Below are positions 1 through 1,063 of a DNA stretch of 64,000 bases, in pieces. The stretch is from Rhizaria sp. SCN 62-66 (lineage: Eukaryota). The notes beneath the pieces were generated by a model. The model was not told where the DNA came from and ran no database searches. It saw nothing but the letters and a program-made list of their open reading frames with translations. Position numbers and translations under genes: made by a program. The DNA lies in contig MEDY01000037.1 of the NCBI GenBank assembly GCA_001724265.1, positions 1-64,000 on the forward strand, given 5' to 3'. Each line of letters starts with the position of its first letter. The first letter of the stretch is position 1.

Positions 1-1063
1 GGATGACGTTGGACGGGTGCAGGTCAATATACACGAAGCCAATCGCGTGCAGCCCCACGAAGAACGAGAGGATGGCCTCCAGCACGGGCACCGGGTCGGA
101 CACCTTGCCGCGGTCGAGCAGCTCGTTCAGCGGCATGCCCATGGGTAAGAGGGACATCAGATATTCGTCGTCCCTGACTTTAATGATGTCCCCTTCCAGA
201 CTCTCCCTGCAGGGAACATTGCTGCGATAAACCTGGCGCATCCACTTAACCTGGTTGGACTCGAGGGGAAGCCGCTTGAGCGCGCCCTTGGGTGACAACT
301 CGATGGAGCGGTTATACCCTTCGAGACGCCACTGCCACTTGCCAACAAGCTGTTGCTCGCGGACGTGGCGGAGCCAGCGGCCGACGTTTACGGCCAGCTT
401 TAGCGCCTTGGCCTTGCCTTCGTCCGTCGTCAGGTTAGCCGTAGCGAGGAGCTGTTGTTGTTCGCCAATGAGCTGATAGAGCTGGAGAGTCCTGGCATCA
501 AAGGCCACGCCCAGCACGCCGTCGGTGCAATCTTGGAAATACGGGCCAAACCAAAACTTGTCGGTGATGTTCTTGACCGCCTCCTTGATGTCCTTACCAG
601 CCTTCTCCTCGGCGAAGACGGGGCCCGCGTAGCCCCCCTCCATGAGAATGACGAAATTGGGGCGGGACTAAGGATTGAGGGATGATGTGCCGTTCTGCAG
701 CCCGGCCCATTGAAAGTCGCGCACCTGGGTGCTGCGCACCAAACGGTAAAGGGGCCTCGCTTGCTCGTTGGCGACCGCGAGCACGATAGCGTTCCACGAG
801 TCGTTGCGGTAATACGACTGGGCCTTAGCAGCCTCAATCGGGACCTCGGGGGCGTTGAGGAAGGTGGCCACATACCCGTAAAAATGGACGATGCCGGTAA
901 CGCCGCCTGCTCGCACTGACGGGGTAGCAGCGCTCAGCATGACCGTCTGCTAGTAGATGCGCAAGTCGGGCGCGGGTGCCGTCGCGACCTCAGCGAGCGT
1001 CGTGAGCGGTGTGGTCTCGTACCGCGTGTAGGGTGACGCTGCAGTGAGAGAAAAAGAGTGAGA

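Follow-up and report, generated by a model that had tools for sequence, protein, structure and literature searches.

Nuclear codes that reassign UAG as the sole stop codon, keeping UAA as the main stop and UGA as another, are described in PMC5304391 for Iotanema spirale, where UAG encodes Gln, and for the rhizarian exLh, where it encodes Leu and where its use is strikingly different between gene classes. The first reports of UAG-only nuclear codes date from 2017 and concern a rhizarian and a fornicate; a class of ciliates followed later (PMC5304391 and PMC11687900). In phyllopharyngean ciliates, the second source gives UAG as Leu or Gln. According to the review PMC5289972, which summarises Zhang et al. 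2016, some one sixth of CR C-termini couple an REase-superfamily domain to a protein kinase, an architecture that recurs below.

We analysed a 64 kb stretch of DNA (the window) in which TAG interrupts the otherwise open frames of two genes, one Crinkler-like (CRN-like) and one Dicer-like. Judged from its sequence, TAG is probably a sense codon in this organism, most likely for Gln, with TAA as the preferred stop and TGA as the other. On this reading the CRN-like gene is a live copy in a large REase-like plus kinase gene family, and its two TAGs (952-950 and 670-668) would be sense codons like any other. As in Iotanema, exLh and the phyllopharyngeans, UAG would be sense, UAA the main terminator and UGA a stop, and the case fits UAG-only reassignment on the features tested, namely TAGs within open frames, selection on the sequence that follows them, and gene ends of which none is clearly TAG. 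Unlike the ciliates, which are AT-rich, the window organism is GC-rich (56–73% across the window in 4-kb bins), with very long unbroken ORFs (4,600–5,700 codons) set among AT-rich spacers and an intron of 137 nt. Its TAGs are far rarer and more clumped than in those systems. The contrast in UAG use, which in exLh lies between gene classes, lies here between individual genes and is extreme.

Gene content of the window and its in-frame TAGs

The window DNA recurs in metagenomes of wastewater, bioreactors and activated sludge; part of it was present in 12 runs from 8 studies, and at least half of its sampled words were present in 4 of the 12 runs. Runs with small word shares (X8–X12) do not enter the evidence on habitat. 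The organism is a GC-rich, intron-poor, flagellated eukaryote of wastewater and bioreactor metagenomes, and Atlas look-ups returned 'Eukaryota' with no consistent phylum. Besides the two TAG-bearing genes, the ORF scan and Pfam gave the following content.

In the window: CofD-like gene (ORF scan and Pfam)
In the window: ORF of 4,597 codons with a WD40 end (ORF scan and Pfam)
In the window: TruD/Pus7-like gene (ORF scan and Pfam)
In the window: flagellar C1a/CLAMP gene (ORF scan and Pfam)
In the window: two more large ORFs, without a Pfam match

The TruD region used as a protein query gave no match at E ≤ 1e-10, and no Rfam family was found in the window. No tRNA gene, suppressors included, was found either in the 64 kb of the window or in seven related loci (L001–L007) that total 16.9 kb and are described in the next section.

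The CRN-like gene lies on the minus strand and runs off the window edge.

1176..1422, minus strand: exon 1, starting at ATG 1422-1420; an 82-residue helical, coiled-coil-like leader, read from the sequence
1039..1175, minus strand: intron, GT..AG, 137 nt, AT- and CA-repeat-rich; its removal preserves the frame, and GC3 periodicity is lost within it
1..1038, minus strand: exon 2, a PD-(D/E)xK-type nuclease-like domain followed by a protein-kinase-fold domain; runs off the window edge
950..952, minus strand: first TAG, codon 30 of exon 2, RIY*QTV by direct translation
668..670, minus strand: second TAG, codon 124, SLNP*SRPNF, four codons before the nuclease PD-motif position
656..658, minus strand: Asn128 at the position of the PD-motif Asp, which is Asp in at least 90% of the family (alignment A2)
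602..607, minus strand: Glu145-Lys146 within the nuclease E-x-K motif; both columns are invariant in alignment A2
8..49, minus strand: His331, Asp339 and Asn344 of the kinase catalytic loop, invariant in alignments A1, A2 and A3

Minus-strand translation of 1-1039 yields one frame of 346 codons with the two TAGs as its sole stops; the other two frames are filled with stops. The initial annotation had both TAGs breaking a frame that continues for more than 220 codons, and both are there, with 222 codons open after TAG 670-668 up to the window edge. Of the motifs it named after the TAGs, the kinase-like ones were recovered as invariant catalytic-loop residues and a matching kinase fold, and the REase-like ones in part, with Glu145-Lys146 kept and Asn at the Asp position in the window copy. 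The family consensus reads R-P-D ... E-E-K and continues downstream with the invariant His331/Asp339/Asn344 and an I-D-C-E segment. In an AlphaFold model of the paralogue P0001 (pLDDT 84.9, pTM 0.81), Asp128 and Glu145-Lys146 fall on adjacent predicted strands. With this model as query, Foldseek gave 500 or more matches at E ≤ 0.001, to kinases over ~190–210 residues, and all matches listed were kinase-fold chains; the match concerns the kinase fold. A profile search of the PDB with the family found kinases only (best E 0.0034). Exon 2 of the window gene matched no Pfam family, and among 16 distant relatives scanned, Pkinase appeared in 7 and HSDR_N in 2, below the Pfam cut-off.

The family is nonetheless plain from its homologues: five close proteins came out of 4,011 candidates, and a profile search of 1.84 billion representative proteins gave 37 matches at E ≤ 0.001, with a profile from which the N-terminal columns holding the TAGs were absent and which says little about them; when the matches were realigned, most distant homologues had a gap at the position of column 124. 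Database entries P0001–P0007 appear to begin or end at TAG points. The equivalent of exon 1 is present in loci L002, L003 and L004, and the whole exon/intron layout is repeated in L002 and L003.

As predicted from sequence and model, the gene is a nuclease-like plus kinase module with the C-terminal architecture of CRN8-type Crinklers, with which it shares a nuclease-like domain bearing Asp and Glu-x-Lys, a kinase fold after it, and membership of a multi-copy, fast-evolving family. It is unlike them in its helical exon-1 leader, in the Asn at the motif Asp of the window copy, in Pkinase and HSDR_N matches of distant relatives that all lie below the cut-off, and in a host that is a free-living or sludge eukaryote and not a known pathogen. 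It also differs in lacking a Ubl/LFLAK-type header by Pfam: no such Crinkler N-terminal header was detected above cut-off in exon 2, P0001, P0003 or the exon-1 product of L002, the last being scanned in place of the window's own exon 1. The name 'Crinkler-like' used in the initial annotation suits the C-terminal module and does not extend to full family membership.

Locus L005 extends the window gene, with a 128-residue overlap that is 100% identical, and its end reads ...AKM TAG CGN TAA TAA. This third TAG, two codons before the tandem TAA TAA, is ambiguous and could be a genuine terminator.

The second TAG-bearing gene lies on the plus strand.

19144..36084, plus strand: Dicer-like gene with a DEAD helicase, Helicase_C and two RNase III stretches; ends in TAA
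19813..20217, plus strand: stretch with the two TAGs of the DEAD domain; GC3 0.90–1.00

The Dicer-like ORF comprises 5,646 codons from the ATG at 19144, within an open frame of 5,723 codons (18916-36084). TAGs stand in this frame at 19813, 20215, 21307 and 21883, with no TAA or TGA inside it and no frameshift. The DEAD match (E 1.2e-10) is a single stretch covering residues 232–456 of the frame that opens at 18916, and TAG codons 300 and 434 fall inside it; Helicase_C (E 1.5e-14) and Ribonuclease_3 (E 3.4e-28, in two stretches) are downstream of all four TAGs. Only readthrough of all four TAGs unites the DEAD domain with the downstream Helicase_C and RNase III domains in a single ORF. GC3 is 0.9–1.0 across the first two TAGs, in contrast to the AT-rich spacers and the single clear intron, which is AT-rich too. 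The N-terminal part of the gene as a protein query gave no match at E ≤ 0.001. RIP-like hypermutation was considered and rejected, GC3 staying at 0.8–1.0.

Scanning with only TAA and TGA as stops, and restricting the count to credible long genes, we found six internal TAGs, two in the CRN-like and four in the Dicer-like gene; the other TAG-bearing frames of that scan are antisense to, or overlap, large genes. All six internal stops are TAG, as first annotated. Verified gene ends in the window are five TAA (4765, 36082, 36401, 42549 and 48730) and two TGA (4434 and 46540). The earlier count of nine termini (six TAA, three TGA, none TAG) holds in that no gene was found to end in TAG, and is reduced in that seven ends could be verified and the end of the CRN-like gene beyond the window is ambiguous. 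The absence of TAG among seven ends would have p ~0.13 if TAG made up 25% of stops.

The TAGs are strongly clumped, with 6 in 1,260 codons (CRN exon 2 and the N-terminal part of the Dicer-like gene) as against none in six other ORFs, which together have 17,325 codons, 463 of them CAG or CAA (Fisher p 1e-7). Such clumping is not expected of a neutral, freely used Gln synonym of CAG, and suggests either a young reassignment or a costly, inefficient decoding that is tolerated by some genes only. One elaboration, which we regard as possible and on the doubtful side, is an early or partial reassignment of UAG in a new GC-rich eukaryotic lineage: an ambiguous intermediate in which UAG is a rare and costly sense codon read by a suppressor that is weak or conditional. 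Only conflict-related genes (the self-toxic nuclease-kinase family and Dicer) would then tolerate UAG, or use it to hold down their expression, and it would be purged elsewhere.

Paralogues, selection and independent samples

If the organism keeps the standard code, pseudogenes or nonsense alleles would account for the copies of the CRN-like gene and for the Dicer-like gene in its 5' part, with TAG as the commonest nonsense product by way of GC3-rich codons. The six TAGs of the window sit easily with such decay, since TAG is expected to account for 0.58–0.73 of random nonsense hits at GC3-rich codon usage (p ~0.10 for six TAGs alone), and so does their restriction to two genes. The initial annotation had argued that decay should also give TGA and TAA stops and indels; with a TAG share of 58–73% this argument is weak for six stops, and it gains its strength from the paralogues.

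Relatives of the CRN-like gene came from a scan of JGI metagenome contigs, in which 7 of 321 pattern matches were loci encoding relatives; a CRN profile scan and a 50-nt exact pattern found no match in genome contigs. For all seven, the alignment with the query stays in one frame. The in-frame stops of the CRN-like ORFs in the window gene and six of the loci are TAG at ten distinct positions, and L007, a short fragment, adds a homologous TAG; not one TAA, TGA or frameshift was present.

TAG at column 29: window, L001, L002 and L003 (copies 72–97% identical)
TAG at column 114: L003
TAG at column 123: window and L001
TAG at column 149: L002
TAG at column 195: L002
TAG at column 229: L001
TAG at column 301: L004 and L006
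TAG at column 467: L005, with a similar one in L007
TAG in exon 1: L002
TAG in exon 1 of the second copy: L004

The genes at these loci end in TAA TAA (L002 and L005), TAA (L006 and L007) or TGA (L004), and a transporter-like ORF on the opposite strand of L005 ends in TAA. At least six indel events separate the CRN-like paralogues, each of whole codons, for which a rough chance, with independence assumed, is (1/3)^6 = 0.001. Because TAA, TGA and frameshifts are absent and all indels are of whole codons, the frame of the family reads as maintained against every lesion except TAG, and the search for mixed lesions among CRN paralogues that had been proposed at the outset came out as TAG only in 7 of 7 loci. 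Counting the ten CRN-family and four Dicer-like positions, some 14 TAG events stand against no TAA or TGA (p ~0.002 at a null TAG share of 0.62–0.73, a rough figure that assumes independence). The Dicer-like frame, open for ~5,700 codons at high GC3 around its TAGs, argues in the same direction, as does the mutual dependence of the DEAD domain upstream of TAGs and the Helicase_C domain downstream.

To assess selection, we compared the window copy with L001, its nearest relative, which shares both TAGs. Of 318 codons, 24 differ, 16 of them synonymously and 8 non-synonymously (dN/dS 0.14). After the second TAG, 15 differences are synonymous and 5 non-synonymous, one of the five being CAG/TAG, and the probability of at least 15 synonymous changes in 20 is 4e-6 if 0.25 are expected. 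At the sequence level this is purifying selection downstream of both TAGs, in a region that would go untranslated if TAG terminated, and selection there supports a sense reading. More divergent paralogue pairs have dN/dS of 0.65–1.43 in 18 of 20 cases. Taken alone these values look neutral and are the main support for decay; together with strict maintenance of the frame, we read values near 1 as selection that is diversifying or relaxed, as it typically is in families of conflict genes.

Decay also draws support from the nuclease motif, in which the Asp is replaced both in the window copy and in L001, where it is His (RPHFVI); a T>G variant at 658 was present in run X2. The multi-copy nature of the family, with a depth over the CRN-like gene ~8 times that of its flanks, is what would be expected of a repeat. 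Set against a frame in which TAG is the only lesion and against the excess of synonymous change downstream of it, decay under the standard code seems to us improbable.

The TAGs are not an assembly artefact. Positions 500-20499 were compared in 4 runs from 3 studies, a stretch that leaves TAGs 21307 and 21883 outside; 16 variant rows were obtained, none of them at 668-670, 950-952, 19813-19815 or 20215-20217. Depth beside the CRN TAGs was 30–130, and a DNA contig from X3 (19668-20499) showed no difference. In a polyA RNA library, one contig spans 19813 unchanged and without a joint, which is weak evidence as the library may contain DNA. In RNA run X7, the CRN-like gene was hardly covered (bin depth 0.4).

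The probable residue at UAG and alternatives to the proposed reassignment

The residue that UAG may encode was sought in other family members at the TAG columns, all comparisons being within one fast-evolving family. The most frequent residue is Gln at 6 of the 10, with counts of 4/4 at column 114, 5/8 at column 195, 8/11 at column 229 and 4/12 at column 301, and with Gln at both exon-1 positions when these were read by eye. The remaining columns have S/L/Q, D/G, N and S/L. At column 123, the position of TAG 670-668, other members have Q, S or L, and the distant homologue P0019 has Q. The probability of Gln at 6 or more of 10 columns is 0.024 against a ~26% CAG source under random nonsense, a null derived by hand from codon counts with a transition/transversion ratio of 2. 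Gln does not hold these columns alone: K, L, S, D, N, E and W are present as well. All four TAGs of the Dicer-like gene lie in variable linkers and are thus uninformative on the encoded residue. On sequence comparison, Gln is favoured and not established, and Leu, as in the rhizarian exLh, is possible.

The initial interpretation of TAG as a sense codon is supported by the paralogue test and by purifying selection downstream. We infer that ribosomes read through TAG, and likewise which residue they insert. UAG would be decoded by a tRNA with a CUA anticodon; alternatively, tRNA-Gln(CUG) may read UAG in combination with an eRF1 that is blind to UAG.

Sordariomycete fungi restore premature UAG to UGG by A-to-I mRNA editing, and the restored residue is Trp. 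By analogy, a standard code could be retained here if the TAGs were corrected or bypassed post-transcriptionally, through A-to-I change of UAG to UGG, other RNA editing or programmed readthrough in specific contexts. Intact genes broken by UAG only, and few of them, recall the Sordariomycetes and fit a targeted or conditional mechanism, and Trp does occur once at a TAG column (P0003, column 195). It is found there in 1 of 8 sequences, and in none at the other columns, however; unlike the Trp restored by Sordariomycete editing, the residues at TAG columns are Q, K, L, S, D or E, and mostly Gln, Lys or Leu. Nor do the six TAGs have a common sequence context, and TAG 19813 is unedited in the polyA contig, the weak evidence noted above. 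Unlike Sordariomycetes, which are not known to have flagella, the window organism carries the flagellar C1a/CLAMP gene. With four leaky stops in succession, hardly any full-length Dicer-like protein would be made unless almost every ribosome read through, and that would amount to reassignment. We consider such correction or bypass quite improbable.

Avoidance of the TAGs, either by short in-frame introns ending in YAG or by translation of the CRN-like gene from Met133 after the second TAG, is very improbable: TAG 670-668 is indeed preceded by a pyrimidine-rich run and an upstream in-frame GTGCGC, and the database calls for P0002, P0003 and P0006 begin at the equivalent of Met133, but the candidate introns are 30–57 nt and GC-rich as against one clear intron of 137 nt that is AT/CA-rich, splicing of the putative Dicer intron at 20215 would cost the protein conserved helicase sequence beyond its DEAH motif, no splice joints were found at the TAGs covered in 4 runs, and an internal start would neither rescue the Dicer-like gene nor account for the TAGs that paralogues carry within the kinase domain, well beyond Met133.

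Implications for code change and gene calling

Our search of the literature found no description of a GC-rich wastewater eukaryote with UAG reassigned, which does not disprove the existence of one. If TAG is a sense codon here, the window would represent a further, apparently independent case of UAG-only reassignment, in a GC-rich, uncultured wastewater eukaryote, and would widen the range of code change. In practical terms, gene calling with the standard code would truncate or split the proteins of these metagenomes at TAG. The clumping of TAG in two genes, if it holds genome-wide, would make an intermediate stage of codon reassignment directly observable.

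TAG codons and public gene calls

The TAG codons of the window were unevenly distributed over its gene set. Two genes together carried six in-frame TAGs over 1,260 codons, and six other ORFs had none over 17,325 codons. The CRN-like gene at the start of the window, on the minus strand, encodes a nuclease-like and protein-kinase-fold module, and seven database proteins belong to its family (P0001–P0007). Their public gene calls either start at Met133 or another internal codon, or end where relatives carry Q, E or K, which suggests that calling under the standard code truncates genes of this family at TAG.

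Neighbouring genes in the window and in a related locus

The following features were read from the window and from L005, a related metagenome locus that continues the CRN-like gene past the window edge.

1740–1860 (approximate): AT-rich spacer separating the CRN-like gene from the ORF that follows and consisting of TACTAGTACATGTAC-like repeats (read from the sequence)
2461–4436, plus strand: CofD/UPF0052-like gene (Pfam), split across two frames and ending in TGA
4765–18558, minus strand: long intron-free ORF
19144–36084, plus strand: long intron-free ORF
48730–63999, minus strand: long intron-free ORF
L005 1120–2163, plus strand: integrase-like fragment (…DNGSEFKGEFENY-TAG…) 3' of the CRN-like gene, in an in-frame fusion with a Cys-rich, Sushi/EGF-like ORF (named by eye)
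L005 3546–4424, minus strand: membrane-transporter-like ORF ending in TAA (named by eye)

The three long ORFs, of about 4,600–5,700 codons each, are all high in Ala and contain much low-complexity sequence. The sole Pfam match of one was WD40-like, at the C-terminal end, and another had no Pfam match across the 4,999 residues scanned. For the CofD/UPF0052-like gene, the Pfam profile carries on from position 109 to 106 over roughly 3007–3216, implying a putative intron or frameshift.

Copy number and nuclease motif of the CRN-like gene

DNA depth over the CRN-like gene (500–1166) was about 60 in two metagenome sequencing runs, X3 and X2, compared with roughly 5–9 in most other bins, which indicates that the gene belongs to a multi-copy family with near-identical members. 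By eye, its 5' flank and first codons (approximately 1415–1512, minus strand), which contain TTTAGACATGGCATTAC, are repeated about 440 bp upstream at approximately 1862–1940; the repeat resembles another 5' end that has been truncated.

In the family alignment, the near-invariant Asp of the nuclease motif is replaced by Asn in the window copy (656–658, minus strand) and by His in L001, a metagenome locus and its nearest relative. Run X2 carried a T>G variant at 658 that corresponds to the His form found in L001. The nuclease may be inactive in the sub-lineage formed by the window copy and L001.
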